A DNA stretch of 64,000 bases. Source: Isurus oxyrinchus. Its lineage: Eukaryota. Shown in pieces: positions 1 through 64,000 of the stretch (the stretch's first letter is position 1; each line of letters starts with the position of its first letter). Position numbers and translations under genes: made by a program. The DNA is taken from contig JANJGN010000034.1 of assembly GCA_026770705.1 (NCBI GenBank), positions 4,092,001 to 4,156,000 on the forward strand, in the 5' to 3' direction. The notes beneath the pieces are model-generated. The model was not told where the DNA came from. It did not search any database and saw nothing but the letters and a program-made list of their open reading frames with translations.

Positions 1-3000
1 TAACTGACAAATTAAGTGTTTGTTCTTGCTTGGGGCCATTGGTTTAAAAACGCGTGAGTAATCGAACAGAAATTCTATTGACATGGCTATTAAAAATGCA
101 ATGGTTGTCCGAAACTGGCCGGGAAATTGGAAGGTCTGGTATGGCGAGGATCGGATATAAAGTTTTGGAAAATCAATCAAAATTCCTTATTTAATGCGAA
201 AGAGATACCTAGTAATAGCTCCATGATTTAGAGAGAACGGGAGCCTATCAAACATTCATCAAACATGGCAATATATTTTAGCAGTGATGGACTTTAACAG
301 AGAATATGGAACAGAAAAAACGTGAGACCACACTGGACTCCTGCCTTGCTCTATGCCGTTCTGCTTGCGTGGGTACCGCCAGAAGTCCCAAACGCACGTT
401 TCTCTGTAATGCAAATGTCATTCCTAACATGCAAATTAATCTCCAGAAAACCAAGAGAATTCCGAACATCAAATACACTATCTAGGATATTCTGCTTGAA
501 CAGTGCTTTTTTGAGCCCATTAAAATTCAGAGCATTCACGACACAACAATCATCAGGTTACTTGATCGGTTGCAAATGCTCTCACGACAACCATTTGAAA
601 AACGAAGGACACATTTAAGCAACCAGAAAAATCAGAATTGAGGTCATGATTTAGGCTGTTAATGCAATTTTTAATTTTGATCTCCAGAGACCAAGGAACA
701 GAGTTTTTTTTTCAATTTATGTCATAATAATTATTCAGGTGTAATGTGGCAAATATTTATTTTGGACGTATGCATTGGAATTTGATGGAATGGCATTGAA
801 TGGCTATTTGCAACACGATTGCCACGTTCTGGTATTTGAATTTAGTGAGCTAGGCTGACATGTATGTTTGATCCCGCTGATTTGCAATCGCTGTCATTCA
901 GAAAAGCTTGATTTTTAAGGTGTAATTCCAGTTCCCAAACCTTATTTTATTCGCTTCAACGGTCTTTTACATTCTCATCCCTTTAGAATTTTAGAGAAAT
1001 TGGGTGGCTCGTTTCCAAAACAATATTGAATTCTCGCCACCTTGTGTCCAAATTTCAACTGCTATAGCAGAATGTGTAAACATATTCTCAGAAATTCATT
1101 TATCATTCTGCTTTTCAAAGACTGATCAACTAGACAAATAATGGACTAGTTGACTTGATGTAGGATCTTGTTTTTTGCAATCCCTGAATGATTTTGGGAA
1201 GGTTCACCTTACTGTGAATAACATTCATTCCGATTTGATATTGTTGTTGTTCTACATGAATGATTCCATAACAACAAACAACAAATACTCAAATACGTCC
1301 AATGTTTTGCATTTATCAAACTGTGAACTGTGGGAATTATGATGCAAAACACGTTACTAAGTTTATGAAAAGCATAAAAATTCTCCAGATCATCCAATTA
1401 TCGGCCATTTTATTGAAGATTCCTCCCTTTCAAACTTTTTTGACTGAATATTATCATTGTTTATCCAAATCATTTTTACAGCTCTACAAAATGGACGAAG
1501 CTGTGTCTGTGAATGATGCTCTGTCTGGGAGTGTCAACGGGATATGAAACGGCGAGCGGCCTTGCCAAATTGTACGTGAAATATGGGTTAGTTTTCAGGA
1601 CGATTTGGATATTCAGAAGTATAAAGTTGACTCTGGCAGAACTGACAAAATGCAAGGAATGTAAAGCTATACCTTTGTGCTTTTATTTCTATATACTTGT
1701 CTTTCTTAAGCTTTGGGAGAAATTGAGAGATAGTCTGAGATGAAACAATGAGCGAGGCAGACAGAAAGAGAGTGAGAATGTTGGATTACAAAGGGGTGAA
1801 TTGGAAGGAGTTTGATGGGGAGAGAAATCTTCGCCAGGATGAAGCGATTGCCAATATTGGACAATTGGCTTTCAGTGAAGTCACATCATAACCAATTTGA
1901 TGTGTCATCTCATCAAACGAGTGCCCTGGGACTGTTTGTACTTTTGATGCTGTGCTAATTGTTCAGTTAAAGTTAAATGTTTAGAGAAATACACGTTTTA
2001 ATGCATTTTTTACGACTCACATTTAAAGAAGAAAGGAGACATAAAGGATTTTTCTTTTGGAACAATCGCATAAGACAGCCTTGGCCAGCGACTCTGTTTC
2101 AAATGCATGCATTGGCAAATGTTAGGAAGGAAATTACGGCTTTTAGCATGAAGTTCGTCAAAGGCGATTTGCTTCCTCTTCCACATAATTAATTGCAGAA
2201 ATATCTACCCGTCAAAATCCGGTCAAGGAAATTGCTCGCCCAACAGGCAATCAATTAAAAAGCAGGTAAAGTTCGAAGTGACGTATACCTTTTGGTGATG
2301 AAATGTCTGCTAATTTACATAATTTTTCTGAATAGCAGCACGTAAATCAGATGAGGAAATGAACTAAGTATACGTCTTCGGATGCAAGGGAGGTAAATGT
2401 ACATGGAACTGAAGACAAAACAATACGTGAGAGTTTTTAAGCACTGTGTTGATAGCAAAGGCAACTGTTGCTAAATTTTACTCGAGCATAATGAAGGCCC
2501 GTTGAAGGAGGGTCACCTTTTTTAAGGTAGGATTGAAGGAATTGCTTTTCTAATTCGCAGCAGTTTCATGTAATTTCTTGCTACTTATTCAAGCATCGTT
2601 TTAACATGATATATAAAATTTGATATAATGATACTTGGAGTTAAATTATGGAGTTCGTTGAACGACAGACTACACATTGGAAGGCAACAGTACAATTTTT
2701 GTTGGAAAGCAGCACATGGAGTTGAAATGATTGTTGTTTGGAATGGACTGAATTGTCAACTGTATGCCCCGCGTGATGTTAATTCATTTGAAGGTAATAG
2801 TACAGAAATTGAGATTTGATAGCAATATAAAATAAAGCCATCATCCAAATCTGAACTTTTAATTGAACTGGCTGTAATGATCACGAAAAGGAATATTGGA
2901 ACAGCATTCAATATTCCATAATGGAAAATGAGATCCTGCAACAACTTTCGAAATCAATCAAGCAAAAATCTACATTTTCACTGAAAAGGAGGCACAGTAA

Positions 3001-5133
3001 CATCTAAATGATTTAGAAAGTATTGGCTCCAGTGAAGCTACCATCTTCAACAGAGATAGTGAAACAGAAATCTCTTGCTCGGAATCTCTACACGTGGAAT
3101 AATGTCTTTCAGTTTGAGTGGGTTCCCTCGCATGTACCAAAACCATGTGTTCCAGAAATGCATGCGTCATGCCCACAACGTAGGTGATACGTTAGAAAGC
3201 GAGATAATGTGCCATCCTGACATTTTTTTTCAGAATGTTTGAGCAGCCCCTGAATCATCACCCTTCAAATTTAGGGCAATCGTTGCAACAGCAGTAATCA
3301 GGAAATGTGATGCCTTGGAAATGCTTCCACCGCAATCGATTGAAAAATAAAGCACACAGATTTAATGAGTTGATAATATTCCAGGTGTGAGGTGATTATT
3401 GAAGCTGTTGATTAAAACGATTAATTTGAAGTACAAACACCAATTTAAGGAGCTGTTTTCTACGTGTAGATTCACAAATATTAGATTGGGATACATGCAA
3501 CCTGCCTTCATATAACAGAAGTTTACGACTTATTGCTTAAGATTGAAAAAGTCCGGATATATGAAAGGATTGAGAGAGGACTTTGTTTATTTTACCCCCG
3601 CTGATGTACACTAGCTGTTCGTGCAAAATGTTTTAACTTTTTCATAATGCCCATGTTTGACACAAAAAGAATACAGAGTAAGATCAAAATGAGTCAGAGA
3701 GTGTGGACGCAGCCAATTATTCGACAACCATTATAATATATGCAACGAGTAATGGGTTGTGATGTGGGTTGTGATATATAAAACATCCGAGTGGAAAGTG
3801 GAACGGTGCCTATATTTATGCCCTTCTGTTCGTGTGGGTTTCCACTGGTACTCCAAACTGATAAGGCTCAGGAATGCAGGCACCACACCTGAAATGCACA
3901 TGAATTTCCAAGAAGGCAGATGATTTCGAATCTCCACATGACGTAGCAAGTGCATGTTGTTTCAGCAGCACTCCATTTAGAACCATTAAAATGGAGAGCA
4001 ACCTAGAGAAAATCAGCCATCAATACATTTGATCTCTGGGAAAGGTTGCCACTGCTATGGTTTGCAAAGGCAATGGGCACAGATTTACCAGGCTGATAAA
4101 TATCCAGGTTTTGAGGTGATGAATTATTATGGTAATGCAATTAGTTATATTGATCAAGTCACATCAATTGAAACTGCTATTTCAGATGGTTCCATAATGT
4201 GCTCCCACGATTACGGTTTCAATTATCTAATTGTGGCAGATGAACTCTAAGTTGATATAAATACATTGTGGGGCTAATTGCAGGTAAATTTCAAAGCCCC
4301 ATTATATGGATGGAGTGAGCTCGGCCTACATTCATATATGGGCACGGTTGAATTTCACTGAATATGGATTCAGCTTATCTTGATTTTACATTTGTTTTTT
4401 TCAGGTCCCAAATCTCATTTAACAAGCGTCAATGCTCAATAAGACCCTTCTCCTGCCACTAAGTATTTACAACCCTTGGCCACATCATTTCTAACTTAAA
4501 ATTCAACTGCCCGACCTTGAACTCGGGATTTAAATTACTGATAACAGTATCTGGCACATGTCTGCAAAAGTTCCACTGAGCATGGTTCTTCTGGAAAACT
4601 GTTAACAACATAATTGTAAAAGATCTGATGATTGGCACAAATATAGAGCTTGTCGACCTGACGTCAGGTGTTGAAAGATCCCTGAAGCAGTTTGGGATGG
4701 ACCATCTTATTATGAATACGATTCAAAACAATTTGATGTTCTTTTTTTTTACCTTTATAGCATATTTTGCAAAAGCAAACAACTCAACTGTACATAAATA
4801 TTTCCAACTTAATCTTTGTTGGGAGAGTTTGGTTGTGAAATACTTTGCTTAAGTTATTAAAATTCTGATGATTCTCCAGGTTCTTCCAACCATCAATCGC
4901 ATTGTTATTGTTGAATTTTCCTGTCTTGAATCTTTTGTGAATAAAATATAGTCTTTGAACTGTCAAGAAATTTTTGCAAGCCAAATGGCTTGAAGCTGTG
5001 CCCTTTAATGTCACCTTGACATCAGGTGGCATGAGACATCTATCAAAGTAGAACTAAAATATGGGTGTGTTGTCAGGATGGTTTGGATTTTTACAAATGT
5101 AGCTCTCACAAAACTGACAGGATGTCCAGGCAT

Positions 5134-5363
5134 TAAAAACAAAAAAAACTGTGGATGCTTGAAATCCAAAACAAAAACAGAATCTGGAGAAACTCAGCAG
5201 GTCTGGCAGCATCGGCGGAGAAGAAAGGAGTTGTCATTTCAAGTCCGCATGTTCCTTCAACAGAGCTCTGTTTAAGGGTCCTGAGGACTCGAAACATCAA
5301 CTCTTTTTTTCTCTGCCGGTGATGCCAGACCTGCTGAGTTTTTCCAGGTAATTCTGATTTTGT
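5134..5363. mobile_element. Palindromic non-autonomous Penelope-like terminal element
   Basis: Inverted arms 'aaactcagcaggtctggcagcatc' / 'gatgccagacctgctgagtttt' are centred on 'cagagctctg' (5261-5270). The sequence belongs to the same family as the termini of the PLE at 6455-8847. Confidence 0.85.
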
Positions 5364-5870
5364 CCAGTTATTAAGTACCATTTACATTTCTTGAATTACA
5401 TGTAATTGAATTTTGTGCAACATACAAGTTGTTATTCAGAAGGAGGAAAAAGGGAAAGAGAGAAGAGGCGCTTCCAGTCAACGACCAAATGACCCAGGGA
5501 TATAAATTTCAATGTTGCCTTATCAGCTATTAGTGATGTATCTTCAGGAGCAACTTGACAAATTGCACTACAACGTCCCGTCAAAGCAGTGTCCGCATTG
5601 ATGTTAGCTGTCGCTCCTGTGGTAATTGATCAACTGAAAAACATATAGATGCAAATAAATCTTTGTTTTTCTTTTTATGATTCAGAGTTAAAGAAGAAAG
5701 GAGAAGGTGGGGGTCACAACATTTCCTTTATATCAAATGCATAAACAAGATTGGCGAGCTAACTGTTTTAAAAGTATCTAACTGTTCACTTTGGTAAATA
5801 GCTTTCCAGTGTCAGGAACAATTTTTCTGTCGGAAATCATAAGCAATGCGTTTTCTCTCACTAATGATTA

Positions 5871-6450
5871 GTGATTCGGTGGTAGAATACTTGCGGGTTG
5901 CTGAAAAAAACTGTGCCCTGTCTAAGCTTTTTTTGTTACACTCATCAGGACACTTGGAAAAATATCAATCACAAGCAGAAAACGTCTATTTGTGAGGAAT
6001 GTGTGGAGAGTGTAGATTGCTTGACAACAGGCATCACAATGGCGAATCAACCCACTCACGGTGATTCACAGATAAATTCCAAGTTTTGCTTGACAATTAA
6101 GGCAAGCCGCATGAATACAACTGAACAATTTATTGCACTTGGAAATGTGTCTGCGAATGGCTATCTCCACTTTGGCTTAGATGAAACTGGAGAAATCCAT
6201 GTTCATGTCCTAACTATAAGCAAAGAATAGCTGTATTATGACATCCGGCATGCAGCTGACACAACTGTGCCACATTGCGATGCTTACTGTAAATCTTAAA
6301 TTGTTTGTTATCAAAGCTCTTGGTATGTTGAGCATTATTTAGCAAATGTTGTCTAATCGCAGAACGCACCTATTGTGGGACAGTAGTTTTAAGTTTTGCA
6401 AGCACAGGCTGGTTGGGTCCCACTGATTCCTGTCCCTTATGAAAAGGTGC
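5871..6450 (-). mobile_element. Old Penelope-like element, 3' part (continues at 8848-9215)
   Basis: Homologous to the left ends of 43868-45290, 53015-54450 and 58070-58550. Contains 'cactcatcaggacac' (CTGATGA on the - strand). Confidence 0.7.
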
Positions 6451-6454
6451 TGCG

Positions 6455-8847
6455 ACAAAAACAAAAATACCAGGAAAAACTCAGCAAGTCTGACAGCATC
6501 TGTGAACAGGGATACAGTTGACATTTCGAGTCCATATGATCCTTCATCAAAATTAAGTCATATAGAAATGAGATGAAAAATAACTAGTAGAGGGGATGGC
6601 TGGGCAGGTAGAGCTCTGTGGGGGGCCAGAGATAGTCGGAGGTCAAGGTAATACAGCCAAATATGTCATTCATCAAAGGAGAGAGGGGAGCCAAAGCTGG
6701 CGCCACTATCCAAAAAATGTGGCAAAGTCGGACATCAAGGGCAGAACGCCAGACAAGGAAGTGGGAGATGAGCCTCGTGGGGTTGGAGTGGAGGGAAGGA
6801 TCCTAAATGGGCCAAAAGGTGGAGGTGAAACAATGGATGGAAATAAATTTAAACATAAGAGGGTAAATAAAAATGTGTTTGTAAAAAAATGATAATTTTT
6901 TGGAAAAAAACGGGATCGGAATGGGCGGGGATAGAGGAGAGAGTTCAAAATATGAAACTGTTGAACTAAATATTAAATCTGGAAGGCCGCAAAGTGCCTA
7001 GTCGGTAGATGATATGCTGCTTCTTCAGATTGCTTTTAGCTTCACTAGAACACTGCAGCAGGCCAAGGATGGACACAAGGACATTAAAGCATGGTGGCAC
7101 GCCGAAACGGCCAGTGACAGGGAGATCTGTGTCATGTTTGCTGACAGACCGAATGTGTCCTCCGAAGCGGTCACCCAGTCTGAGTTTAGTCTCTCCAATG
7201 TACAGGACACTGCATCATGAGCAGCAAACACAACAGGCCAAACTGATGGAAGCGCAAGTGAAGAGCCACCCAAGTCGAAAGGAGTGTTTGGGCCACTGAA
7301 CTCTGAGGAGGAATGAAGTAAAGGGGTAGGTGTTGCACCCTCTGTGGATACATTGGAAGGTGCCGTGGGAGGGGGTTGACGTGTAGGGGCTGATGAAAGA
7401 ACGGACCAGAGTGTACCGGAGAGAGCGATCCCTGCAGATATCCGTGAAGGGCAGTGAAGGGAAGATATGCCCTTTGGCAGAACTATGCTGGAACGGACAG
7501 AAATTTTGGCAGACGATCCCCCGATCGCAGAGGCTGCTGGGACGACAACCCAGGACAATTGGGACCCCACCACGGCTCTGGTAGGGAATGAACATTGCAA
7601 GGGCGAATGCGCGGGAGATAATTTGGACATGCTTCAAGACCCTGTCAATCAACCTGGTGGGAGGAAACCCCCTTTTAAGGATAAAGGAAGGCATGACAGA
7701 GGAAGTGTTTTGGAAAGTGGCATCATCAGAACAGATGGAGGGGTGGAAATTGGAAACAAAGCCAACAAATTCTTCTGCAACTGTAAGAATTTGTTGGTAT
7801 TGTTCTGATTTAAACCCTCCAATGTTTCGACATGATCCTTCTCTGTCAATTCCCTACCCATCGTTGGCCCCTCTGCCTCAATTTCTGCTGATAGACTGTC
7901 CACCAAATTTCATTGCAGCCCTGCCGACTCCCACAGCTGCCTCCAATGCAGCTCCCCACCCCTCGCCACCGGTCGGGGCTCGGTCCCAAACTCTCAGTTC
8001 CCTCCTCTCCGTCACATCTGTATTTTTTATGATGCCACTTTTCTAAACACTGCATTAGAGGATGGGGTGCGGGCCGGACAGAGACTGGGTGACCGCTTTG
8101 CGGAACACCTTTGGTCTGTTGGCAAGCATGACCCTGACCTCCCTGTCGATTTTCATTTCAACACTCCAACCTGCTCTCATGCCCGATTGTCCATCGTTGG
8201 CCTGCTGCATTGCTTCAGTGAAGCTAAATGCAAGCTGGCGGAGCAATGCTTCATCTTCTGACAGGGCACTTTACAGCATTCCGGACTTAATAGTTAGTTT
8301 AAAAATTTCAGATCGTAAACTCTGTCATCCATACCCGCCCCCTTTCCAATCACTTTATTTTTTTCCGAGCATTGATCAAATTTTACAAGTGTATTCTCTC
8401 CCCCCTCCTTGTTTTAAATTTATTTCGATCTGTTGCTTCGTCTCCACCTTTTGGCCCGTTTCCGTCCGTACCCCCCACCCTACCACCGCTAGGGTAATTC
8501 CAACTTGCTCGTCCTGCTTTCTGCCCTTGGTGTCGCCATTGACACATCCTGTGGATAGTGTCACCACCATCGGCATCACTTTGTCCTTTTGTCTATGACA
8601 TTTTTGGCGGTCTCATCTTGTCCTCCACCTATCACTGCCCCCCTCTCGAGCTCTAACTGTCGCATCCACCCCCGCCTACCAGGCTATATTTCATCACATT
8701 TCTGTGTGTCTTATATCTGATGAAGGGTCATACGGATTTGAAACGTCAACACTATCCCTCTCTGCAGATGTTGTCAGACCTGCTGGGTTTTTCAAGGTAT
8801 TTTGATTTTCTTCTAGATTTTTCAGCATCCTCAGTATTGTGCTTCTA
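6455..8847. mobile_element. Younger Penelope-like retroelement with inverted structure (degenerate RT C-terminus/GIY-YIG)
   Basis: Inverted termini 6455-6552 / 8716-8812. The - strand reads 'MPSFILKRGFPP..IDRVLKHV..ISR' (7694->) and 'YIGETKLRLGDRF' (~7200). The + strand carries a second GIY-YIG fragment 'RLGDRFAEHL.SV.KHDPDLPV..HFN' (8080-8260). Frameshifted. Confidence 0.92.
8717..8747 (+). ncRNA. Minimal hammerhead-ribozyme-like motif in the PLE terminal repeat (degenerate helix II)
   Basis: CTGATGA-a-gggtc-atacg-gattt-GAAAC-GTC. PLE terminal repeats are known to carry minimal hammerheads. Confidence 0.55.
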
Positions 8848-9215
8848 TCTGAGTGTTTAGGGCATGTTGTTTGATGTGATCCACCAGTCTCTGTATGTAA
8901 GATGTACATACCTAGAATCACACAAACATTGAAATTCATATACCTCATTACGCATTTGCGTGATTAGCTGAATGTTCATTTGGCTTGACGCATCATCCTG
9001 TTAGAGGAGAATAGCAAATCGAGTGTGAATCAGCTCACTTCACCTGGTGCTCAAATATTTGAGAAGTCTTCAAATTATGGGGAATTCTGAGGTAGAATAG
9101 GCACTTTTCAGGGTTTCAACTTAATGTCATAGCCACGTTCATGAGTATGGCTGAAATAAAATGCGAAATAACCTGATCAGCTTAGCGTCACAGTGAAGGA
9201 CCAAGAAGTGGACGG
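8848..9215 (-). mobile_element. Old Penelope-like element, GIY-YIG region
   Basis: The - strand reads 'PEKCLFYLRIP...SQIFEHQVK' and 'NEVYEFQCLCDSRYV', matching the PLE motif VYEFQCxCDxRYVGRTSQRLxDRIKQH. Confidence 0.88.
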
Positions 9216-9311
9216 ATATGCTTACAACTGCTGGCTTGTGTATTTTCTCGATGAGCCGTCATGAAATATGGAGTAAATACATGTTTTGTGCATTATTTGT
9301 TTACGATTCAG

Positions 9312-9332
9312 AGCTAAAGAAGAAGGAAGAAG
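9312..9332 (+). pseudogene. Putative 21-nt micro-exon (representative copy), ELKKKEE in phase 1
   Basis: tttacgattcAG|agctaaagaagaaggaagaag|GTaata. AG/GT are retained in ten copies (see findings). Confidence 0.45.
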
Positions 9333-12027
9333 GTAATAACATCTTACCTTTTTTTTCGGATGCATAAAGCACCAATGGCGAGCAAACTCTTTCCAGTATA
9401 TAAACTGGCCACTTGGACGAATGGCATTCCAGTACCTGGAATGGTGTTTGTGCCGGAGATCAAAGGCAATGTGTTTCCACTTCCTTATGATTAATTGCAT
9501 GAGATTTCTGTCTGTCCATGTCTGATGACAAAAAGTACTCTCGCAACTGAGAAGCAATGCCTAAGCACAGGGTGGTGAAACTGATTTGGAGCTACGGACC
9601 ATTAAATTGAATGAGGGTGAAGTGATTGCTAATTTATGTTACGCTTCTGAGTAGCAGACTGTAAATGAGTGGAATAAATGTGCCAAGTTTAATTCTTCGC
9701 AGCATTGGAGGTAAAGCTGGATAGAATTGAAGATAAAGCAATTTTGTGATTATTTTCCTGTAACTGTGTGGACCGCCTTTGCCCAATTCAGCTCGACCAT
9801 CATGAAAGCCTGTTGAAGGAGGATCATCTATTTAAGGTGGAATCGAGTGAATTGCCTTTTTCTCTATTTCACAGCAGTGTATCATAATATATTGGGACTT
9901 TTTCAAACAACCTTTCAATATAATGGCAAAAGAGGTAAATTTAAATATTGCTTAAATACTGAGGTTCATAGAAAGACATATTCATTAAAAAAGCAAAAAT
10001 AAATTTTCTGGGAATAAAGCACACGAGTTTGAAATGTCATTTGCTATTTCGAAGGGCAAAATTAGAATTGTATTTTCTTCCTTAACGTTGCTGGCACAAT
10101 TCTTGTTTATTGTACAGAACATGAGATGAGATGGCAAAAAAAGAAACACAGGACGAACGTCAGAGCCTGGACTTTTAATTGCACGGGCTGCAATGATAAG
10201 GAACAAGGTTCTTTGGAAGGCGTACAATCTTCTTTAATGGAAATCTGATCCTTTAATAGCTCTCAAAACTTCAAACAAAAATCCACATTTGATGTGAAAA
10301 GGATGCATGGTAATCGCTATGCTACACGATGCAGAAAGAAAGGTCGCCCGTCATCCTTGCATCAAACTTCGGAATCAATATTACCAGAAATGGACTTTAG
10401 CCGTGATTGTGGAGCAAAAAAAATCCTTAAGAATATGGACTTTTGACCTGTGTAGCTTCATGACTTTCGGCTCTTGCGGGTTTCCTGTGATGTTCCAAAT
10501 GCATGTGGTTCAGGATTGCAGATGTCATGCCAGATTGCATGGGAATTCAGAATCTCTTAAACAAATAATGAGGATATGCTGTTTTAGCAGTGCTTGATTT
10601 AGTAACAATCAATTCAGGGCAACCTGGACATTTGATGTTTTGGAAATACTTTCATCATTTTCGTTTCGAAAATAAAAAGACACAGGTTGATAATACTCCA
10701 CATTTGAACTGATAATTAACGTTGTTAAGCAAGTTACGTACGTTGATCCCCACACACCAATTTAAGGAGCATATACAGATGATGCCATAAGGCTTTTCCA
10801 CCAATACTGTTACAATATTTCATGGGCAACCATGGCGTCTATCTAGATATAACAGAAGTGTAGGGCAAATGGTTCAACGATTGCAAAGTCGCTGAATATG
10901 GAGGAAGTGAGTGAGGCCTACATTTACATTTTCCGGTGCTAAATTGCACTGACTGTCGATTCAGAATCTCTTCATTTAAATAAGATATTTAAGTTTTCAA
11001 AACTGTTTTATTTTGCTTCCAAGCTATTGATGATTCTCCTCGCTTCAATTTATATGAGCCGTTTGCTATCTCCATTCTTACTTAAAATGAAATTTCCCCG
11101 TTCCTGTTGTCTGTTTTTCTTTTGTCATTAACAGAATCTAAAACAATATTTTCACAAAATTAATTTACCATAATTCATTTCAACAACATAGCGAAACATC
11201 TGACTCTCTATGCATATGTAAAACGAGGTGTCTTGACGTCAGGTGCTGATTCAAGCACGTTGGGAAGATTCATCTTATTATGAATGACATTAAGAACACC
11301 TTGATGTTGCTTTTTAACTTCATCGCTGTTTACGACCAACACTGTTCCGAAATATTTCAACAGTTATATCAAACGCCTAAGTAGAAATATTAATGCAACA
11401 TACATTATTGAATTTCTCAAAAGGCTACAGGATCCCCAGCTTCTTCCAACCATCTATCAAGTTGATGAAAATTGCTGTCTTTTAATTCTTTCAGGCTGAA
11501 GTAGTGGCGTGAAGGGCCGAATCATTGCTACATCTCCACCAAACACCTTGAAGCTGTGTTTGCGAATGACAGCTTGACACGACATGGCCTGCAGGGCGAT
11601 TTCGATGTTCAGAAGTATGCTGCTAATTCTCACAAAACGGAAAAAGTGCCAGGAATTTTAAGTAATAAATCTGTGTTTGATTTTCTATTCAATTGATTTG
11701 CAAACAAGCTGCAGAACATTATTGGCTTAAACGTGGAGAATTGGGGATCGATCTTTCTATTTAAAATCGGCAAGATAAATTATTTTGTGAGATGGTTAAA
11801 CATTCTTCTAACAGTATAGCAAGTGAGATAAATTGTTAGCAGAGCTTTGAACAACTAGGTTTCATTGAATGGACAGTGACGCAGGTTTTAGTGATGTAAA
11901 ACGCATTGAGCTGAAATATAATTTGCTGTAAAGAGGAAACATTTGGATCAATTCTTAATTCTAAATTCGTGATGCTGGCTCATTTCAGGGTAATATCCCG
12001 GATCATAAATGACATAGCGATTTATGT

Positions 12028-38900: not shown

Positions 38901-38949
38901 ATTGCCCATCTTGTTCTCTTGGCTTTAAGTGAACTCGCTTCATGAACCT

Positions 38950-52539: not shown

Positions 52540-52597
52540 TGGTGGTGGTGGGGGGGGGGGGGGGGGGGGGGGCGGGGGGGGGGGGATGCGGTGGGGG
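52540..52597 (+). repeat. G-rich/poly-G tract within the monomer microsatellite
   Basis: (GGT)n followed by long G runs. Confidence 0.9.
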
Positions 52598-53014
52598 AGA
52601 AAGAGAGAGATACGGAGATAGAGAGAGTTCCTCACAGAGAAGAACCAACCCGGAAGTCGCACATGGTTGATTAGGGTGACCATAGCTTCCATCGAGGGAT
52701 CTTCATAAGCAATTCGAATTAGCCTATCGGCAAATCTCGTCATACTGCTGCCCCCTTTTGATTTTTGTTGGCAATGCTTTGGCAAATTTTGATCGGAAAA
52801 TAAACTTGGAGGGAATTTCCATTCGTATTGCTTTTAAAAATTCAGAGTGAAATAAGAAGGCAGGAGTTAAATGCATGACATTTTTTTTCACTATGAATGC
52901 ATGTAATACGTTTGGTGAGCACACGGTTTCAGAATGAGTCAATGTTGAACTTCCAGTACCATGTATGGCGTTTCAGTTGGAAGCCAAAAGCAACACATTT
53001 CCTCTTCACAAATC

Positions 53015-54450
53015 ACAGTGTTGCTTGCACAAATTTTGAATATTTCTGAAAAAGAAACAAGAGACCTGAGTAATATTTTGGGCTTGCCCTGATATGGACA
53101 CTCACGAAATTAGCAATCATAGCGGCGATCTTGCAAATTATACTGTAAATGAAGGCAGTGCTGTTTTTTATCACTGGCAACGTTGCCATGGTTAATGCAC
53201 GAATGATGGTTACTGTCGCTTACTTGGCAAACAATATTTGGAATTGAAACCTTGCAGTTTTATCCTAACTGGTCTAGGCATTTCCCTGAGAAATAAATCA
53301 GCGGGTGACAGCCCTTATTTGGCACAGCTGAAACTGGAACAATGTACATACATGTTCTTTCTGACTACAAAGGACTGCGTGTGGTGTATTAATGACGTTA
53401 ACTTCCAGTGAACGCAAATGTGCCACATTGTGAGTCAGACTGATATTCTTAAATTACGTATTAGCATAATTATCAACACACATAAGCATTATTCAGTACA
53501 TCTTTGTGAATCGCAGAATCATGTTTAATCTTGTACAGTTTCTCTTACTTTTTACAACCACGGTCTGTTTGGGCATGTTTCGTTATTGCCTGAGCAGTGG
53601 TTGGGCTGTGTGGCTTGATACGTTCCACTTATGCTTGTGGCATAATGCCTACATACCTAAATTCACAATGGCGCTGAAATTCAAACATCAGGTTACTAAC
53701 TTGTGTCACAAACATAAAGATTTTTTCGGTTGATGGCAAAATCCTGTTAGAAGCATTTCTCAATGCAGTTGGTTTGCAGAGTAGCCATGTTAAGAATCTA
53801 GCTTCACCTCGTGCTGCATTTTTTGATATAACTGATGCAGATTGGGCACTTTGCAGAGCGAAAGGTGATGGCCTGGACCTGTCTTTGCGTTAGCATGAGA
53901 TACGGCACGTAATGATTTGATGAGGCTAGCCATTAAAATACAGCTGTATTTGATACGCCTTATGACTACATGAGGTTAGTTTGGCGAGAAATTGGTCGTT
54001 TCCTATTTACACATTGGCCAATGAGAAAAAATGATATAGCGTGTGGATCTCTAAGACTCTCAAAGTAAATACAGGGAACTGAAAGTATGTTTATGCTAGA
54101 TATCGACAGGTAACTCACTGTCTTGATGCCTCAGCTACCGGGTGAAAGATGGGCAGTTGATCTTACTGTTCAATTTCAAAGATGAATATGAGAGCAAGTT
54201 GGAACCTACTAAGACAAGTAAGCAAATTGTTACTTTGTACTCAGATTTAGGTATAGACTAAACATCATCCCCAAATTGGAAACATACAAACTTGCAGGTT
54301 ACATCTCATTTCTTCCAAGACACGTTTCTCTTGGATTCCTACAATAAAATGTTCGCGAGGGCTGGGCCTAGCATGGATCCCACGGCCACACCATCCATAT
54401 TGGCGTACATTGCGTCATAAGTGACTTTTTCTAAAGGTGTTGCCAGGGCA
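53015..54450 (-). mobile_element. Old Penelope-like element copy
   Basis: Colinear with the other copies. 'ctgggcctagcatggatcccacggc' at ~54362 (GSxLGP on the - strand) and a degenerate YxDD region at ~54260-54290. Confidence 0.85.
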
Positions 54451-57400
54451 GATTATTTATTAGCCTGCCTTAAAGCCTGGAGTTGCACAAAGACAGACTT
54501 CAATTGGAGAGACAGCCACCCATGCTTTTGTGGGATAGCACATGGACTTGAAATATAATTTTCCTCTTTGAAAGGTCTGAAGTGTCTATTGTTTGCTATC
54601 CTAGGTGACACCTGCAGGGTAACATAGTAGAACACGAGCCCTGGCAGAAATGAACAAAACTACAAGCGTCAAAGGCTGCAAGGGAATTTTGAATGTCAGC
54701 AATGATCGGCAGGGACATTGTGAAGGCAATCTATCTTGTGTAATGGAAAATGAGACCCTATAGCACCTCTCTGATAAACAAGTGGAAATCTGCATTTGCT
54801 GAGGAAAGAATGCTCAGTAATATCTACTTAATTTATAAATTAAGGATGTCACTCAACCTTACATGAAACTTTAGTTTATATGCTACAGGCAAAATACAAT
54901 AATAGAAATTATGAAAAAGACAGCACCTTATTGGAAATTGCACTCTCAGTCAGCGTTGCTCCATGCAACGGTGCTGATGCGGGTTCATTCTGACACTCCA
55001 AAGCCAGGAATGCAGGCGGCAAGCACTAAATGGACATTAATTTCTAGAAAAACTGAACATTATTAAGTTTCAAATACCCGTATCTCAAATATGCTGTTTG
55101 AGCAATGCTTGATTTTTCATCATAAATATTCAGGGCAGTCTAGAGAACAGCCGCTATTGCATCTGCTGGAAATTCTCCAATTGCCTGCATTTGAAATACA
55201 AAGGACGCATGAATAACAAATTGATGAAAATCCAACTGTGATGAGATGATTAATGATGTTTATTAAATTACTCATTTTGATTTTTACATCAATTGAAAGA
55301 GCTGTTTTTGATGGTGCAATGACGTTTTCACACGCTAACGGTGACAAATATTTGATTGGAATGCATACAGTCTGCACTCATATTAGGACAGTGCAAGGAC
55401 CAAATACTTAGCAATAGCAGATACCCAGAATGTGAACGAAGTACATCAAGCCTGCATCGAAATGTTTCCCCATTGAATTGCAATTACCCTGGATTCAGAA
55501 TGCCTTGATTTTGAACAAGAAATTCCACGTGTCAAAAGCCATTATTACGCTTCCACACTAATTGAGGTTACAATGCCTCTAAGCCTTTGAGTCCTTGGAC
55601 AATTTGGTTCTAACCTATTTTTTTTTCCTGGTTGAAGACGAGTTTCCGTTTAATGATAACATTATCTCACAAAATATTTCTAATATCCGTGCACCATGCT
55701 ACATTGGCAACGCCAGTAACTAATAATTTTGCAAACAACTGATCATCTGAACAAATACAGCACTAGAATTGTTCGGTGTGTTATGTTGATTGATGACAAT
55801 CGTGCAAGCCCTTTGTGAAGGTACAACTCATTAGGAATCCCATTCACAATAATTTGAAGTTGTTTGTCTTCTTTCATGAATGTATAACAGCAAGCAAGGC
55901 CACTGTACAGGAACATTTCCAAGGTTTGGCATATGCCAAACGCTGCCTTAGCAAAAATATAACGTAATTAACAGTATTAAATCTGTTCAAATACTGATGG
56001 TTCCAAATATTCTTCTAAAGACTAGTCAAGTTGATGAAGCATTATGACTTTGAAACGTTTCTGACAAAAATTGTGTCCTTGAAGAGCGCAAACCTTGTTT
56101 AATCTGCATGAATGCCTTCTAGCTGTCTCTGTGAATGTCGGCTTTACATGTTGCCAAGGTAGAGTTGAGATATGCGTACATTGTCTGTTTGATGTGGTTA
56201 TTAACAAGTGTACTGTTAACCCTCACAGAACTGGCAAAAAGCCAGGAAGGTAATGTTTTATTTTTATCTTTTTCCATGGCTATGCAAATGATTTTTGAGC
56301 AGACCGTCTCGTCTTATTGATAGCCCGAATCAGAGGGAGAAAGAGAGAGAGAGAGAGAAAGAAGAGAAGTAATTCCAGGAAGTGATGTTACCGTTGGGAG
56401 ACGCAAATGCTAGCCGTGCTGCCTTTTAGACATTTAGCTTAATCTCTTCATGTGCAATTGGACAAAACACTGAGTGACATGTCAGCAAAGCATGTTGCCC
56501 CGTTGTTTGGATTTGTCGGAGCATTGGCGATTGTTGAGTCGAGGACTGCCTTGAAGAGAAATATATTTTCTATACCTTTTGTCCATTCAGAGCTAATGAA
56601 GAAGGGAGAAGGCAAGGGTAAGCTTCAAGTCTCATTTAATTCGCTTCAACCATCTTTATGATCCTCCAGCATTTTAAGCTTTTGGGATGTTGACCATCTC
56701 GTTTCTGACATTACATTCATGTGTTCTTATACTGAAACAAAGACTTAATTTGCTGTTAATGGAACATCTTCAAGTAATTCCAAAACATCAAATTCTTATC
56801 GTTCATTCGAACTGCGAGAAATAACAGCAGAGACAAACAACTAGTCACTTGCACAAATATTTGCACGAGGTGACTTAATTCGTATATTGATAGAAGCAGA
56901 TTGGTAATATCCTGTTTATCTGAAGCACATGCAGGAGAAGTTTATTATGGTAAAAGAAAAACACAAGTGATGGGTAAAATGTGGAGCTAAAACAACATAT
57001 GTGTTAGAATTTCAGCAGGTCCGACAGCACCTGGGAGAGAGAAACTGAATTAACGTTACGAGTCAGTGCAAATCTTCATCAGAGCAGTTGATGAGGCTGT
57101 GTGTCTTCATTAATGATTCTATTACAGCAAACAACACCTCTGTATCAAAATCTAATCAACATTTCTATATATCAAATGTTCATTATTGGAAGCATAGTGT
57201 AACATTCATTGCTAAAGATATTGTGGAGCTGATGAATCTGCAGTTTCTTCCGACCACTTTCTTCAAGTTGAATACACAAGTCCTTAGAAGTAATTCTAAC
57301 TGAAACAGTGTCCTTGTAGAGCGACATATTTATCACGTCTACACCAAATAGCTTGAAGCCGTGTCTGTGGAAACCTGCTCAACATTTAACGGCCTGAGAT

Positions 57401-58069
57401 CTCGAACAGTGGATTGCAAATATCGTTTTGTTTTCGGGATTATTAGGATATTCACAAGGATGCTGTTAACTTCTGACAGAACTGACAAAATACCAAAAGG
57501 CTGAGGCAGTAGCTTTGTTTTAGCTTTTCTATTTAATTGATATTGGAGCAAGGAATATGGTATTAGTGAGTAAGAGAGAGAATGTCAGGGAGAGGCAGAG
57601 TGAGTATGTGTTGTATGTGTGTTTATCAGAGAGCAAGAGAGGGAGAAGGTGAGAGAGAGGGTGAGAGAGAAAGAAAGGAAAAGATCCATCCTCGCAATGA
57701 ATAACCAGCTGGCAGACGCATATATGTGCCTGTTGGTTTTCATCGAGTTCTCTTCATGAACAATTCAGCTTCACACCTTCTCAAACCAGTGCCCCATGCA
57801 TGCTTATGTGATGATGCTGTGGTAATATTTCAATCGAGGAGGAACCTGCAGAGAAATACCATTCGTTTTATTTTTAACCAGTCAGAGCTAAAGAAGATTC
57901 GAGATGGTAACAACATCATTTTTTTTTTCTTTTTCATAAAGAATGCAATATACAAGGTAAGTGAACAAGCTGTTGCAGAATCTAACAATGCTCAAGTTGC
58001 CAAAATAACTTCCAGTATCCATTATGTCAGAGGCCAAAGGCAACAAACTTTCTCATTGTAATGATTAGC

Positions 58070-58550
58070 CATTTGCTTGTGGAAAGCTTGAGTGCTTCTG
58101 AAAGAGCATATATGTCTTTGTTTTTCCTGTTGCATTCATCAGGACACTCACAGAAGTACCAGATTTAGGCGGGTGGATGGGGGAGGGGGGGGCGTGGGGG
58201 CAGTGGGGGTGGAGTAGGGAGGAATTTGCACGTTACTCTCTCAATTAAGTCAGTGCTGATTTGTTGCAAGTGGCAAAGCCATGAAGGTTGCGCCACTAAT
58301 CGTGAATGACAGTTATATTCAAAGCAATGCTTGGAAATTAAACGAGGCAGCTTGCCCCGAAATTGGCAATGCATCGCCATGAAGAATGAGTCATGTTTTA
58401 TGTGAAACTAATGCAATGTATGAACACCTATTCATGATTGCAAAGAGCAGGGACTGGTACCTTTAAAAATATGCTTTCAAGTAAACGCAAGTGTGCCAGC
58501 TTGCAAGCTCGACTGATAGGGTGATTCAATATCGTATTGGCATTGTCGCT
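58070..58550 (-). mobile_element. Old Penelope-like element, 3' part (split by CR1)
   Basis: 'ttcatcaggacactc' at ~58135; homologous to 5871-6300 and 53015-53450. Confidence 0.7.
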
Positions 58551-58559
58551 CATCTAGAA

Positions 58560-60596
58560 ATCCAAAAAACTGATTTCGCATCCTACAGCTGGAATTTGAA
58601 TTGTAGAAAGAGTTGGAGTTCTGCAGGCAGTTTTGCCGATTGTTTTAAAAAAAAACAATGTGTTTCAGTAATGCCTTTTAGTGAAGGAAAACTGTTGCCC
58701 TTACCTAAACTTGGCTCCACAGCAATTTTGTTGACTCTTAAAAGCCCTGTGAAATGACCTCAGCTGTAACAAAGTGCTACAAAGACAGGGATGTCCACCC
58801 ACCACGACGACTGACAGATTCGTAAACAGTCCGGAGTGGGCTGACCTTTGACTCTTCAACATCGAAACCTGACCCCATGACATCAGCATAAAGATGAGTA
58901 TGGAAATCACTTCGGGGAAGCACTGAGCATGGCACGGGGATGAATATTCTATGCATGGGAGACATCAATATCCATCACCAAGAGTGGCTCAGTTGCAATA
59001 CTGCTGGCCGAGTTCTAAATGGCATAATTAGATTCAGTATGCGATAAATTGTGTGAGGGTAAACATTCTTGACCCCATCCTCACCAACCTGCAAGCCATA
59101 GATTAATCTATTCATGACTGTATCGATGGGAGTGAACACCTTGCAGTTAAGTTGAAGACATTGGCCCGACTTCACATTGAGCATACCCTCCATCGTGTTG
59201 TGAGGAGCTACGACGATGCTAAATGTTGTAGATTTAGAAGGGGAATAACAACTCAAGTCTGGGCCTGAGGTGCTGTGTGCCACCAGCAGCAGGCGAGCTG
59301 TACTCGAACATGGTGTGCAGCCTCATGGCTGGGCATGTCCCCCACTCTTGCATAACCATCAAGCTGAGGGATCAACCCTGGTTCAAGGCAGTAGTGCATA
59401 CCAGGAGCAGCACAAGGTATACCAAAAATGAAGTGTCAAACTGCTGAATTATACTGAAAGGACCACTTGTGTGACCAATAGCATCAGCAGCAGGTTATTC
59501 ACAGCGCAAACGTGATGCAACAATCAACAGATCAGATCACATCTAGCCGTGAATGGTGCTGGACAATTTAACAACTCACTGGAGGAGCTCGGTTCAGAAA
59601 AATTCCCATCCCCAAAGATAGAGCAGCCGAGCACAGCAGTGCAAAATACATGGCTGAAGCATTCCCAACAATCTTCAGACACAGGTGCCAAGTGGATGCT
59701 GGACGTCCCCAGAATAACAGATGTCAGTCTTCAGCAAAATCGAATCACTCCACGTGATATCAAGAAAGGGCTGAAAGCACTGGATACTGCAAAGTATATG
59801 GGCCTAGACAATATTGTGGCAATAATACTGAAGACCTGTGTTACACATCTTGCCACATCGCTAGCCAAGCTGTTACAATGCAGCTGCTAGACTGGCATCG
59901 ACTACTTTATATGGAAAATTGCCCATGTATGTCTTCTACACAAAAGGAGGACTAATCTAAACCTATCAATTTTTGTCCAATCAGTGCATTCTTCACCACC
60001 AGTAAATTAATGGATGGGGTCATCAACAGTCCTATGAGGGATACCTACTTAGCAATAAACTGCTCAAAATGCTCCATTGTGTTTCGCCAGGACCGCTCAG
60101 TTGCTGTTCCGAATACAGCCTTTGTTCAAACATGGACAAACGAGCTGAAGTCCTGATGTGAAGTGACAGTGGCTTCCTTGAAATTCATGGCGGCATGTGG
60201 CCGCTTGTGGCATCAAGGAGCCTTTGCTAAAGTGGAGAGAATGGGATTCAGGAGAAAAATTCTACGCTGGTTGCAGTCGTATCGAGCCCAAAGAAATGTG
60301 GTTGCAGCTGATAGAGGTCAGTCATCTCAGCACCAGGGCACCACTTCACGTGCTCCTGAGGGTACAGTATGAGGCCCAACCATCTTCAGCTGCATCATCA
60401 AATACTTTCCATCCATCATATGTTCAGAAGATAGGATGTTCACTGATGATTTCACCTTTCTAATTGCACTCTAAGGGTACTTGTACCACATGGAATGCAG
60501 CTGTTCAAGAAAGCAGATCACCACCGCCTTCTCAATGGCAAGTAGGGATGGGCAATAAATGCTGGCCTAGCAAGTGAATCCACACCCCATGAATTA
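58560..60596 (+). mobile_element. Independent longer CR1-type LINE (5' UTR-like region, APE and RT relics, internal deletions)
   Basis: APE relic 'GDINIHHQEWL' at ~58957-58990, ORF 59549 'ITPRDIKKGLKALDTAKYMGLDNI', 'MFTDD' at ~60437 and a CR1-like 3' end. It sits inside an old PLE. Confidence 0.9.
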
Positions 60597-60609
60597 AGTT
60601 AAACTATAT

Positions 60610-61900
60610 TAAATAGTAAATTGGGTGTCAGCATAATTCTTAGCACGCTCAGGATTACTCAGCAACTGTATCGAGTCATGGAGGCACATGTAATGTTGGA
60701 TACTTGTGAGTACGTTTCAGAAACATGATCTTCTTTGGACATGGTTGGTACTGTGCACTGTACGAAGAGTGACTGGGTGGTGTTGTTTGATACGATCCGG
60801 CAATCTTGGGAAATTTTGCCTAGGTACCTAACATTACAATGGCACTGAAGCCCACAACTTAATTTTGTCACATGCAGAACGTCTTTTTGCGTAATGCAGC
60901 ATTCAATTAGGGGCAAAAACCAATCGAGTTGGACTGAGCAGTAGCAGCGTGAAGAAGATAGATTCACATCGCGCTCAATTTGTTTTGATATACCTTGCAC
61001 TTCTAAGGGATTCTGAGGTAGCATGGGTACTATTCATGTAGATAGGTTGCATTCTTTTTACCGTTCATGGGTTTGCGTGACAAAGAGCTCATACTGACCT
61101 GATTACATTAGCCAGTAACTTGCAGAATTGTTTTTATCCTTCTTATTTCAAAATTTAATTTGCATCATGAACAAATATTTCGTGCACCATTTGCAATTTT
61201 GCTGCTGAGACAAACGTTATAGAATATGGAACTCTAATTCTCAATGCAATTAATGAACATTGAATGTATGTTAGCGGTAGACATTGGTAGACAATACCCT
61301 CGCGTCTCTCTCAACTGGAAAGTCAAGGAAAAGGTGATCATCACATTGCTCAATTTAAATGGCTGATTTGAGTGCTACATAGAGGCAATTAAGACATTTA
61401 AGGGAATTTGGCCATGCAACTGCTATTTATCGACAGAATCAACATTTTCCACATATGAAAGGGTTAGGAGATTAGGTGTCATTTCATCCAAGGCATGCTT
61501 CTCATGGAATCCTACAAAGATGTTTGCAAGAGTTGGGCCTCGCGGTGAACCCACAGAAAAAAATAAAAACATCTACTGGGAATATATGTTGTCATTCAAA
61601 CTAAACACAACTGCGGTAGTTGCCAGCTTCATATGGCCAATGAGCAGTGATTGACACAATGGTTGCAGATCCGGATTGCCTTGGTATGTTGCTGGAACCT
61701 ATATTTCTATGTTTTCCTTAAATGGAGAATTAGTGAAAAGGCTAGCTTTGCCAAATGAGCAGATGGACAAAGCATTGCTATCGATATGAAATCATAGATT
61801 GCAAATCTGAAGGAGTCCATGGTTACGTGGAATTAGTGAACAATGAGACTGAACCCCGGCATATATATATATATAACGGGCTAGGCTAGACATGTCTCAG
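60610..61900 (-). mobile_element. Old Penelope-like element, RT/GIY-YIG part
   Basis: ORF 60659-61024 'SRCY...QKDVL..QCHCNVRYLGKISQ', plus 'MDSFRFA' at ~61800-61822 resembling KDSFTFA. Confidence 0.88.
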
Positions 61901-64000
61901 TTTTGTCAGCATTCATAATAATTAATTGCAGGAAATTTATGCTTGTTAATATCCGATGTATCAAACCAACTTAGAAGCATTGCCAAAGCAGAGTGCTATG
62001 AACATGATGTAGTGCTTCATATCGACAACACCAAAGTCGCTGAAGTCACTGTTAATTCATGAAAGATTTTTTCAATAGCAGAGTTTAAGTCAGGTAAGAG
62101 ATTGGGCAAACCATAGATCTAGAGGCAAGAGAGGGAAATAGGCACGACGTTATATTTTGCTCCAAATGGGGTTATGTCTTTGCTCCATATGGATGGCAAT
62201 GAGACAAGTGTTTCACAATGTAGTTCGAGCATAATGGATACTAGTTAATGGTGGGTAATATGTTTAAGGTGGAAAGGACATAATATGTTTTTTTAACCTA
62301 TTTCACAGCAGCATAATGCAATATTAATTGACTTTTTTGTTTTAAGATGCCTTTTAATATGATGCCATATAAGATTAAGTGAGGGCAGGGCTTGGGGCCA
62401 AGAGGTCAAACAAAGGCAGTCCTCGATTGGAGAGGCAGCAACCCAGTTCTTGGTGGAATTCAACAAATTGCGTCGAAATACCATGTTCTGTTTGGAAGGT
62501 ACTGAAGTGTCAAGTGTTTGCACTTCCTCATTAAAACTGTCAAATTGAGATAATAGTGTAGGAAGTGAGATGAGACAGCAACTGACAATATAACGAATCG
62601 CTGTGGCTGGACGGAAAATTGGCAGGTCTGCAACCAACGGCTGCAAGGACATCTCAAAGGCTCTTGTCTTCTGCGATGGAAAATAAGATCATTTAGCATC
62701 CACCGAAAATCAATTAAAATCCAGGTTTGTAGTGAAATGGAAGCTCAGTAATAGCTATATGCTTTAGAGAGTAAAGACGCCAAGGCAGCCTTGCATGGAT
62801 CTTTAGAAGATAAGCTAAAATAAATGTATTTTGACAGACATACCCAGGCAGAGAACAACTTACTGGAAACTGCACAATTGTACAGCGCAGCTTTTTGCTC
62901 CTTAGCACTTGAGGGTTCATTTTGAAGTCACAAAGGCTTGTGCTTCAAGAATATAGATGTCATAGTAGAAATGCACGCAAGTTGCCAGAAACCCAGCTTA
63001 TTGAAAATCTCGCAAACAGGTGTGTAGGTTATGCTGTTTGAGCAGTGTTTGATTTAGCACCATTCAAATTCAGGGCAGTCCAGAGATTAGCAGCGTTGAG
63101 AACACTCGATGCAACAGAAATGTCCCCAGTGCTATCGTTTGGAAAACAAATAATGGAGCATTTTTAAACGGATAAATATCGAGATGTGAGGAGTAGTTTA
63201 AAGTTGTCCATTCAATTAGTCATTTTGATCTATACATGTCATTGAAAGAGCTGTTTCAGATGATTCAATAATACTTTACCTTCTCTGCGATGACACAAAT
63301 TTGAGTGGGACACATGCAGTCCACATTGATGACAAAAACAGTGCCGGTTTGATTGCTTAACAATTGCAAAATCCTCTACGACTGGAATCTGGATTTTTCC
63401 CGTTGAATTACTCTGAATGTCGCCTCAGAATTCCATGCTTTTAAGTAAGAGATTTAAGTTCTCAAACTGCATTTAATTAGCTTCAACTCAGTCCAGTTCA
63501 TCCTGCTCTTAAAATTCTTGATATATTGTCCACCTCTCTTCTTCAGTAAAAATCTATTAGTCCGCCCACAAAGTCGTTGGGATTACACTTGCTGCTATTC
63601 GAATATAACACAAGTTTCAAAGATCCATTCATCACGCTTCATTCGTTACAGTCGTAACGACCAAAACACCCAAACACCTGATAATCTGCCCTAAATATCA
63701 CGAGATAACTTGATACCAGATCCATCTTGATGACAGTCCTTGAATACAGTTAGGAGGATTCATCATATTATCAATAAAATTCAGAAGAATTCGATACCGT
63801 GTTTTCCTTAGTGTATGAATCTGGAACAGCAATCAACGCCAGTGTAACCAAATATTTCCATCGTTTGTGATATGTGAAACGCTGCTGTATTAGAAAGATG
63901 ATTTAATATATATTCTACCGTTACTAAAAGGCTGATGATTCTCGAGATGTTCCCAAACATCTGCAAAGTTGTTGTAGTTCCCTTTATTTGTGAAATACTG

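Follow-up and report, generated by a model that had tools for sequence, protein, structure and literature searches.

A divergent head-to-tail array of a 2.8-kb unit in Isurus oxyrinchus, probably a dead composite macrosatellite

Here, we show that a ~2.8-kb unit, which includes a GA microsatellite, recurs head to tail throughout a 64,000-nt stretch of DNA from Isurus oxyrinchus (hereafter, the window). We suggest, with a probability of roughly two in three, that this array is a dead composite macrosatellite, which expanded in situ through unequal exchange before homogenisation of its copies ceased. Three retroelements recur in several copies, each at its own fixed monomer position; hence, each of them integrated once and was subsequently multiplied with the array, i.e. 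a Penelope-like segment (segment X, core column ~2060, five copies), a Penelope end of 135 nt (~1090, four copies) and a CR1-like LINE (~1745, six copies). Deletion junctions are likewise common to several copies.

Extent and unit of the array

An earlier sequence-only reading had described the whole window as a tandem array in a single orientation, with many internal deletions and running past both edges, and all of this is borne out. Sensitive self-BLASTN gave periodic diagonals with 408 direct versus 7 inverted alignments, and with stricter settings three inverted alignments were obtained, each within private Penelope-related inserts. All matches to a one-monomer profile (53/53) are on the plus strand, and they reveal the many internal deletions in the monomer copies. 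The profile spans 42,254 nt, corresponding to 98.3% of the non-transposon, non-N sequence, and leaves 732 nt (1.1% of the window) unassigned, mostly as ~30-nt seams at the profile origin. The array exceeds the window on the left (3-148, columns 2613-2750) and on the right (62710-63990, columns 1-1290).

The proposed unit of ~3.5 kb did not hold up. The base unit is ~2.8 kb with a period of 2785 (173 to 2958), and the apparent 3.47-kb spacing at the left edge is the sum of a full monomer and a partial repeat of 0.7 kb. The estimate of about 20 copies is correct only as an upper value, since each position is present in 11-20 copies, amounting to 15.1 monomer-equivalents in about 28 partial passes. 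Similarly, the idea that the repeating sequence is one monomer is valid for 98% of the non-TE part but fails for segment X, which is a decayed Penelope-like element.

The array is beyond chance expectation. The reversed window gave 14 profile matches at E<=1, and the 10 listed were all on GA microsatellite columns; in global alignments, unrelated sequences are 41-42% identical versus 57-61% for deep copy pairs. An assembly artefact is ruled out because the copies differ by 20-45%. The monomer has 38% GC and a CpG o/e of 0.59. TRF detected nothing but arrays of microsatellite scale or otherwise short period. Scores of 91.5 and 82.5 (null maximum 77) hinted at a monomer built of ~520-bp sub-repeats, an idea that was rejected because profile-profile comparison did not bear it out. 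The core sequence is arranged as follows.

3..148, plus strand: monomer tail cut at the left edge, core columns 2613-2750
173..2957, plus strand: complete uninterrupted core monomer, period 2785
2958..5136, plus strand: partial monomers, columns 1-743 then 10-1505
5441..5871, plus strand: core columns 1632-2058, ending at the segment X insertion site
9234..12316, plus strand: deep-lineage monomer and rearranged fragments, including the youngest duplication here (11480-11676 / 12027-12224, 92%)
12359..41985, plus strand: middle domain, ~7.7-8.2-kb higher-order units
13425..13640, plus strand: one instance of the best-conserved block (core 1446-1505) and, after it, the GA microsatellite (core ~1550-1670), which recurs at this same monomer position
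42012..62680, plus strand: right domain, four ~5-5.5-kb higher-order units
47213..47420, unstranded: assembly gap of 208 N over the GA microsatellite position
61911..63990, plus strand: core columns 2044-2791, then 1-1290, truncated at the right edge

Divergence and higher-order organisation

Most copy pairs are 50-65% identical, with a median of 56.6% for deep pairs, and none of the 377 pairs of at least 300 columns reaches 80%, the exception to this divergence being one local duplication of 198 nt at 92%. The copy tree is star-like at its base, with 0.25-0.35 substitutions per site from root to tip, while neighbouring copies cluster with bootstrap values of 97-100. Insertion and deletion markers delimit later higher-order units of ~5 kb and ~8 kb, and these units group in spatially compact clades. 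The units of the middle domain share a core deletion (485->~1420) and the CR1-like insert, and this domain also holds one deep-lineage monomer (33208-35813). In the right domain, the unit order is a long core pass, a shared 1898->761 jump, a short core pass with the 135-nt insert, and segment X.

Together with the pN/pS values given below, flat conservation along the monomer (0.52-0.64 per 100 columns) and deletions of 1, 2 and 3 nt that become progressively rarer (127, 60 and 30) form a neutral pattern. The substitution spectrum of the copies has a kappa of only ~1.65. No fixed element end is visible, because the 41 junction ends are without clustering (p 0.48-0.71); a candidate end near column 750, where four junctions fall, was rejected on the same grounds, the clustering being not significant. 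Private TEs make up only 7.4% despite the large divergence.

Retroelement passengers

Segment X is an in-register repeat of 1.2-1.9 kb that resembles a monomer and constitutes 10.5% of the sequence. It is an ancient, decayed Penelope-like insertion that was amplified with the array and is present in five copies. Core columns ~2049-2060 are duplicated over ~12-14 nt at its flanks. Penelope proteins gave three matches on one strand (27.4, 6.3 and 4.9 bits) with RT followed by GIY-YIG in collinear order; reference Penelope proteins carry RVT_1 and GIY-YIG. A word-based protein search with one segment X copy gave no match. Segment X and a private element at 6453-8841, the arms of which are 72.6% identical, are members of the Penelope-like retroelements (RT + GIY-YIG) travelling as passengers of the array. 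By contrast, the core monomer is without Penelope similarity: compared with 120 Penelope proteins it gave no match (best -5.1 bits), and the idea that the core is a decayed Penelope ORF was rejected.

5137..5440, unstranded: short private insert with inverted arms inside, composed of Penelope-type end sequence
5872..9233, minus strand: segment X copy 1, split by a later Penelope-like element
6453..8841, minus strand: private Penelope-like element, C-terminal part of RT and GIY-YIG, with inverted partial copy
42347..42484, 46578-46712, 51871-51995 and 56950-57082, unstranded: co-amplified ~135-nt Penelope-end fragment
43893..45300, minus strand: segment X copy 2
47814..49000, minus strand: segment X copy 3
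53037..54419, minus strand: segment X copy 4
58090..61910, minus strand: segment X copy 5, interrupted by the private CR1-like LINE listed below

The remaining inserts are putative LINEs, for which, both the six co-amplified copies and the private one, we keep the CR1 label of the sequence-only reading.

15576..16166, plus strand: co-amplified CR1-like copy 1
17303..19244, plus strand: co-amplified CR1-like copy 2
23317..24748, plus strand: co-amplified CR1-like copy 3, 5' part deleted
26589..27728, plus strand: co-amplified CR1-like copy 4
31210..32944, plus strand: co-amplified CR1-like copy 5
38955..40924, plus strand: co-amplified CR1-like copy 6
58557..60601, plus strand: private CR1-like LINE, separate insertion

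Five of the six co-amplified copies have a common 5' start point, with pairwise identities of 62-78%; the private LINE is 52-61% identical to the six. Core and LINE have diverged in step (78.5/78.6% and 68-69/65-70%). RT-type motifs are visible in single CR1-like copies. Searches of these copies against Pfam and PDB gave no confirming match, the Pfam scan of single copies being insensitive, and PDB searches with three LINE pieces returned only weak unrelated matches and none to RT.

Coding, RNA and other functional signals

In agreement with the earlier description of a monomer core without recognisable TE or protein, no protein match was found. The copies evolved without coding constraint: codon periodicity is absent (4 of 53 windows at p<0.05), all six frames have shared stops (35-57 per frame), pN/pS is 0.8-1.1 in all 24 frame tests, and no ancestral ORF or exon with codon-position constraint was found. 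Consequently, of the two possibilities raised by the sequence-only reading, the ancient macrosatellite-scale array stands, while a cluster of long coding genes is disfavoured by the absent periodicity, the shared stops, the pN/pS values and the flat conservation. Compared with shuffled sequence, the minus strand of the majority reading, one of two strands analysed, is slightly more open (p=0.03), with one stop in 137 codons in one stretch and two stops in 153 in another. Profile searches against PDB, and with one reading frame, frame B, against 1.84 billion representatives, were empty. Pfam scans of single copies were also empty and say little, because the same scans missed all five known TE copies given as positive controls. 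A TRIM-like coiled coil in a 147-aa ORF (29849-30289) was dismissed, having no Pfam or PDB support.

The best-conserved block comprises 60 nt (columns 1446-1505), with 69% identity between deep lineages versus 56% overall (p=0.005-0.006 by column permutation and 0.06 by block permutation). Its translation is hydrophobic and contains 1.0-1.6% stops, its pN/pS is 1.04, and a 1-nt insertion in it is common to four right-domain copies. The block ends in a donor-like AG|GTAA, which is altered in about half of 22 copies, and an acceptor-like site lies at column ~2063. These sites prompted the idea of a leader exon and an Ig/TCR V exon, which we rejected because the segment downstream is the Penelope-like insert on the other strand; moreover, pN/pS is ~1, there is no V-domain reading downstream of the acceptor-like site, and no recombination signal was found, neither an exact 12-spacer form in the copies nor a heptamer in the majority reading. 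The block yielded neither a predicted consensus RNA structure nor an Rfam match. Across the window, Rfam gave no match at the gathering score and six scattered weak matches at E<=10, none recurring at one unit position, and the tRNA scan found none; hence, we see no array of structural RNA genes (tRNA, 5S, U snRNA, snoRNA or miRNA).

Discussion

Based on these data, we suggest that unequal crossing-over, or homologous exchange of another kind, would have enlarged the array in situ. The star-like base of the tree could stem from an early phase in which the copies were homogenised or arose in a burst, with block duplications following later. Once the copies had become too divergent to recombine, exchange would have stopped, and neutral decay and three private insertions would have followed. 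Most likely, the array does nothing sequence-specific today. The slightly open minus strand, the raised conservation of the 60-nt block and the small share of private TEs weigh against this overall reading.

We also considered that the monomer derives from an unrecognised mobile element of old age, non-autonomous or decayed, e.g. a Helitron/Helentron derivative, whose tandem insertion or replication founded the array before unequal exchange enlarged it. Helitron-type elements form tandem arrays, and the star-like tree base would fit a burst, as would the internal microsatellite and the mildly open minus strand fit such an origin; we nevertheless regard it as unlikely, as the breakpoints lack the clustering that would mark element ends, inverted bands are at about the null level of direct repeats, no terminal repeat or hairpin was established, and the Penelope protein, PDB and frame B searches were empty. 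Similarly improbable is a dead gene cluster, in which a gene or exon per unit (TRIM, protocadherin and Ig/TCR V were considered) was lost before or early in amplification. The donor-like end, hydrophobic reading and few stops of the best-conserved block, the acceptor-like site and the two ~140-150-codon nearly open minus-strand frames would agree with it, but the pN/pS and 1-nt insertion in this block, the missing V-domain reading and recombination signals, the stops common to copies in all frames and the empty profile searches argue against it. The unit may still harbour a very small exon, or a gene that had died before the array was amplified.

The higher identity of the 60-nt block would be expected if the array were still functional through a small repeated element, i.e. 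the block as a putative protein-binding site or tiny exon within neutral spacer; its block-permutation value, the lack of predicted RNA structure or Rfam match and the frequent change of its donor-like site make this very improbable. Finally, we are doubtful that the array stems from early cartilaginous-fish or jawed-vertebrate history, is orthologous across sharks and rays, and was kept, colinear and with relatively few private insertions, over several hundred million years because it marks a locus with a structural or regulatory role, either the relic of a centromeric or boundary domain or a repeated 60-nt element that serves in binding or as an exon.

The array shares with macrosatellites a kilobase unit arranged head to tail in one orientation and the copying of TEs and simple repeats with the unit, here segment X, the CR1-like and 135-nt inserts and the recurring GA tract; the high inter-unit identity that comes from ongoing homogenisation is absent. 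By the values given in the respective sources, human T2T composite repeats have within-array identities of 80-100% (LSAU composites) and eight of them contain coding sequence (bioRxiv 10.1101/2021.07.12.451456), whereas here most pairs are 50-65% identical, none of at least 300 columns reaches 80%, and no coding sequence was found. D4Z4 (3.3 kb, overlapping DUX4) and DXZ4 (3 kb, CpG-rich) are described with a similar unit size and head-to-tail layout (PMC8122249), but the unit described here has 38% GC and a CpG o/e of 0.59, is without ORF and is not homogenised. As in the monomeric layers and HORs of alpha-satellite, divergent monomers are regrouped into higher-order blocks; however, the 2.8-kb monomer is much larger, and the blocks are only 65-80% alike compared to the 97-100% reported for live HORs (PMC8122249). 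The literature that we searched held no earlier description of such an array.

Ordinary repeat finders miss tandem arrays of such divergence, and annotation would list them under unique sequence or assign them to false TE families. The array records the life cycle of a large satellite, i.e. expansion, retroelement capture, higher-order regrouping and loss of homogenisation, and its 11-20 neutrally diverged copies together with the co-amplified LINE and Penelope inserts provide a local neutral clock and substitution spectrum. If it is orthologous in other cartilaginous fishes, it would allow a direct test of the survival of non-coding tandem DNA in slowly evolving genomes. Were an ancient orthologous array to prove true, it would be a “fossil macrosatellite” that satellite finders overlook and in which dated TE insertions serve as internal clocks.

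An ancient single-orientation array fills the window

In self-BLASTN, the window gave 115 direct and three inverted alignments under strict settings and 408 direct and seven inverted alignments under sensitive settings, with diagonals spanning its entire length. A monomer DNA profile of 2791 columns, made from window copies and iterated once, matched 53 stretches, 53 of 53 on the plus strand, and covered 42,254 nt, which amounts to 66.0% of the whole window, or 98.3% once transposons and N are set aside. The 732 nt without assignment are chiefly ~30-nt seams where the arbitrary profile origin falls. When the reversed window served as a control, 14 profile matches were obtained at E<=1, and the 10 examined all lay on GA microsatellite columns. 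Global alignment identity was 57-61% for four deep copy pairs vs 41-42% for three unrelated controls. The left and right window edges each cut a monomer. These data bear out the sequence-only reading in that nearly all non-transposon sequence belongs to one monomer, repeated in one orientation and extending past both edges. The sole assembly gap (208 N at 47213-47420) is located where the GA microsatellite is expected.

The unit size of ~3.5 kb in that reading did not hold. The monomer recurs with a base period of ~2.8 kb (2785 from 173 to 2958), and the spacing of 3.47 kb at the left edge spans a full monomer and a further partial one (columns 1-743). By contrast, its estimate of about 20 copies was fair: copy depth is 11-20 per 100-column bin, the array sums to 15.1 monomer-equivalents in the window, and ~28 partial passes were counted from the profile match table. 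A hint of ~520-bp sub-repeats in the monomer was unconfirmed on further comparison.

A trapped Penelope-like element within the apparent monomer

Segment X, a decayed insert that makes up 10.5% of the window, recurs in register five times, each time at column ~2060. On the minus strand, its majority reading matches a Penelope-like reverse transcriptase (RT; E 5e-8 to P0002) and has three collinear matches to a 120-protein RT/GIY-YIG profile (27.4, 6.3 and 4.9 bits), against which four single X copies also score (iE 9e-5, 2.5e-4, 0.019 and 0.32). Core columns ~2049-2060 are present on both flanks of segment X, the pattern expected of a target duplication. The earlier observation is largely upheld, with the unit size corrected and part of the seeming monomer being this trapped Penelope-like element. 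The farthest-apart X copies are 57% identical, which matches the divergence of the deepest core pairs and places the entry of X close to the beginning of the recorded history. The core itself reached at best -5.1 bits against the Penelope profile that detects X.

At column ~1090, four copies carry a ~135-nt insert (66-70% alike) that resembles the ends of a private Penelope-like element, i.e. one present in a single array place, which has an inverted partial copy:

6453-8841, minus-strand part: RT C-terminal part and GIY-YIG
6453-8841, plus-strand part: RT piece and GIY-YIG end

The arms of this element are already 27% apart, and no young transposon was seen in the window. Private insertions sum to just 7.4% of the window despite an age of ~0.3 substitutions per site.

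Column ~1745 carries six LINE pieces that were co-amplified with the array and are 62-78% identical to one another; all but one of them have a common 5' start point. A seventh, private LINE (58557-60601) is 52-61% identical to these six. RT-type motifs are visible in the LINE copies, but Pfam and PDB searches gave no match confirming them; the inserts are putatively CR1, the label used in the sequence-only reading. One LINE copy contains seven degenerate telomere-type hexamer repeats (27593-27634). Long G runs occur in a LINE copy (18170-18201) and in a core copy, where the run (52550-52597) occupies the microsatellite position.

The core is apparently non-coding

The sequence-only reading had left open a dead gene cluster or a large satellite. 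Several properties of the core argue against a dead cluster of long coding genes: conservation stays level (0.52-0.64 per 100-column bin), 35-57 stops per frame are common to copies in six of six frames, and pN/pS falls within 0.80-1.10 for each of the 24 region-by-frame tests. Period-3 signal was found at p<0.05 in four of 53 sub-windows, and deletions of 1, 2 and 3 nt occur 127, 60 and 30 times, respectively. As a counterpoint, the minus strand is slightly more open than shuffles (p=0.03; X control 0/100), with two near-open stretches holding one stop in 137 codons and two stops in 153 codons. Profiles of these stretches, made with 13 and 14 pieces of the window, respectively, had no match in PDB, and the second had none among 1.84 billion representatives. 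Two of the three longest non-transposon stop-free frames (29849-30289 and 62296-62688, minus strand) map to a single region and strand of the monomer, the one in which the majority reading holds one stop in 137 codons.

Pfam searches of one copy in six frames, of alignment A1 and of the 144 longest of 338 non-transposon stop-free frames returned nothing credible; these negatives are weak because the search was insensitive on transposon controls, also missing six transposon frames and five of five transposon copies. Rfam gave no match at the gathering score and six scattered weak matches, ARAGORN gave none, and an exact scan for the recombination signal gave none. Overall, we regard a cluster of long coding genes as unlikely. 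The majority reading of the core holds 16 CCAAT pentamers over its two strands, perhaps above the composition expectation.

The best-conserved block (columns 1446-1505, e.g. 13425-13485) lies immediately upstream of the GA tract and has a donor-like site at its end. Its identity between deep lineages is 69% vs 56% overall, with p=0.005-0.006 by column permutation and a borderline p=0.06 by block permutation. It has a pN/pS of 1.04 and a 1-nt insertion in four copies, no structure was predicted for it, and its conservation may be chance.

Probable growth in place and loss of homogenisation

Among 377 fragment pairs with at least 300 columns of overlap, 291 are under 60% identity and none is at 80% or more; the median identity of deep pairs is 56.6%. 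Four trees have a star-like, poorly resolved base and root-to-tip distances of ~0.25-0.35, and the divergence of core and LINE runs in step. Neighbouring copies group into well-supported clades: the middle copies at bootstrap 100 in three trees out of four, the short passes on the right at 97-98, and the segments after the LINE at 100. Common inserts and common deletion junctions define units of ~7.7-8.2 kb at 12.4-42.0 kb and of ~5-5.5 kb at 42.0-62.7 kb. The 41 junction ends, compiled by hand from profile matches with common junctions counted once and transposon-internal ends omitted, did not cluster (p 0.48-0.71). Only one event is young: a local duplication of 198 nt (11480-11676/12027-12224; 92% identity). 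We infer that the array grew in place through homologous unequal exchange and that homogenisation was lost afterwards.

The host is presumed to be a cartilaginous fish, in line with the sequence-only reading and with its repeats. At the epaulette shark rate of 7x10^-10 per generation (PMC10587355), the array depth would correspond to 4-5x10^8 generations, which is too many for multi-year generations, so that rates must have been higher in the past or at this locus. With 0.5-1x10^-9 per year as an assumed rate, the age would be 250-700 million years. Transition bias is low over all copy pairs, with raw ti/tv at 0.6-0.9 and kappa at 1.6-1.8, and is the same for core, LINE and X copies; the corresponding figure between the arms of the 6453-8841 Penelope-like element is 1.14. 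CpG observed/expected is higher in core copies (0.59) than in LINE copies (0.37-0.47).

Discussion

We found no description of such an array in the mostly open-access literature searched. In the portions consulted, a vertebrate megasatellite survey covers coding repeats only and lacks the word shark (bioRxiv 10.1101/2021.07.19.452908), while a shark comparative genomics study reports abundant Y-linked satellites and has no such unit in the text seen, and its supplementary satellite tables may bear on novelty (PMC11406177).

The composite repeats and macrosatellites described for the human T2T assembly combine transposons, simple repeats and unknown subunits and are attributed to unequal crossing over (bioRxiv 10.1101/2021.07.12.451456). 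The array described here works like these, and its unit size is that of D4Z4 and DXZ4 (PMC8122249). However, living macrosatellites are homogenised while this array is not, and it is therefore classed as a fossil variant. Altogether, we conclude that the array is real, very old and a composite macrosatellite relic that is apparently non-coding.
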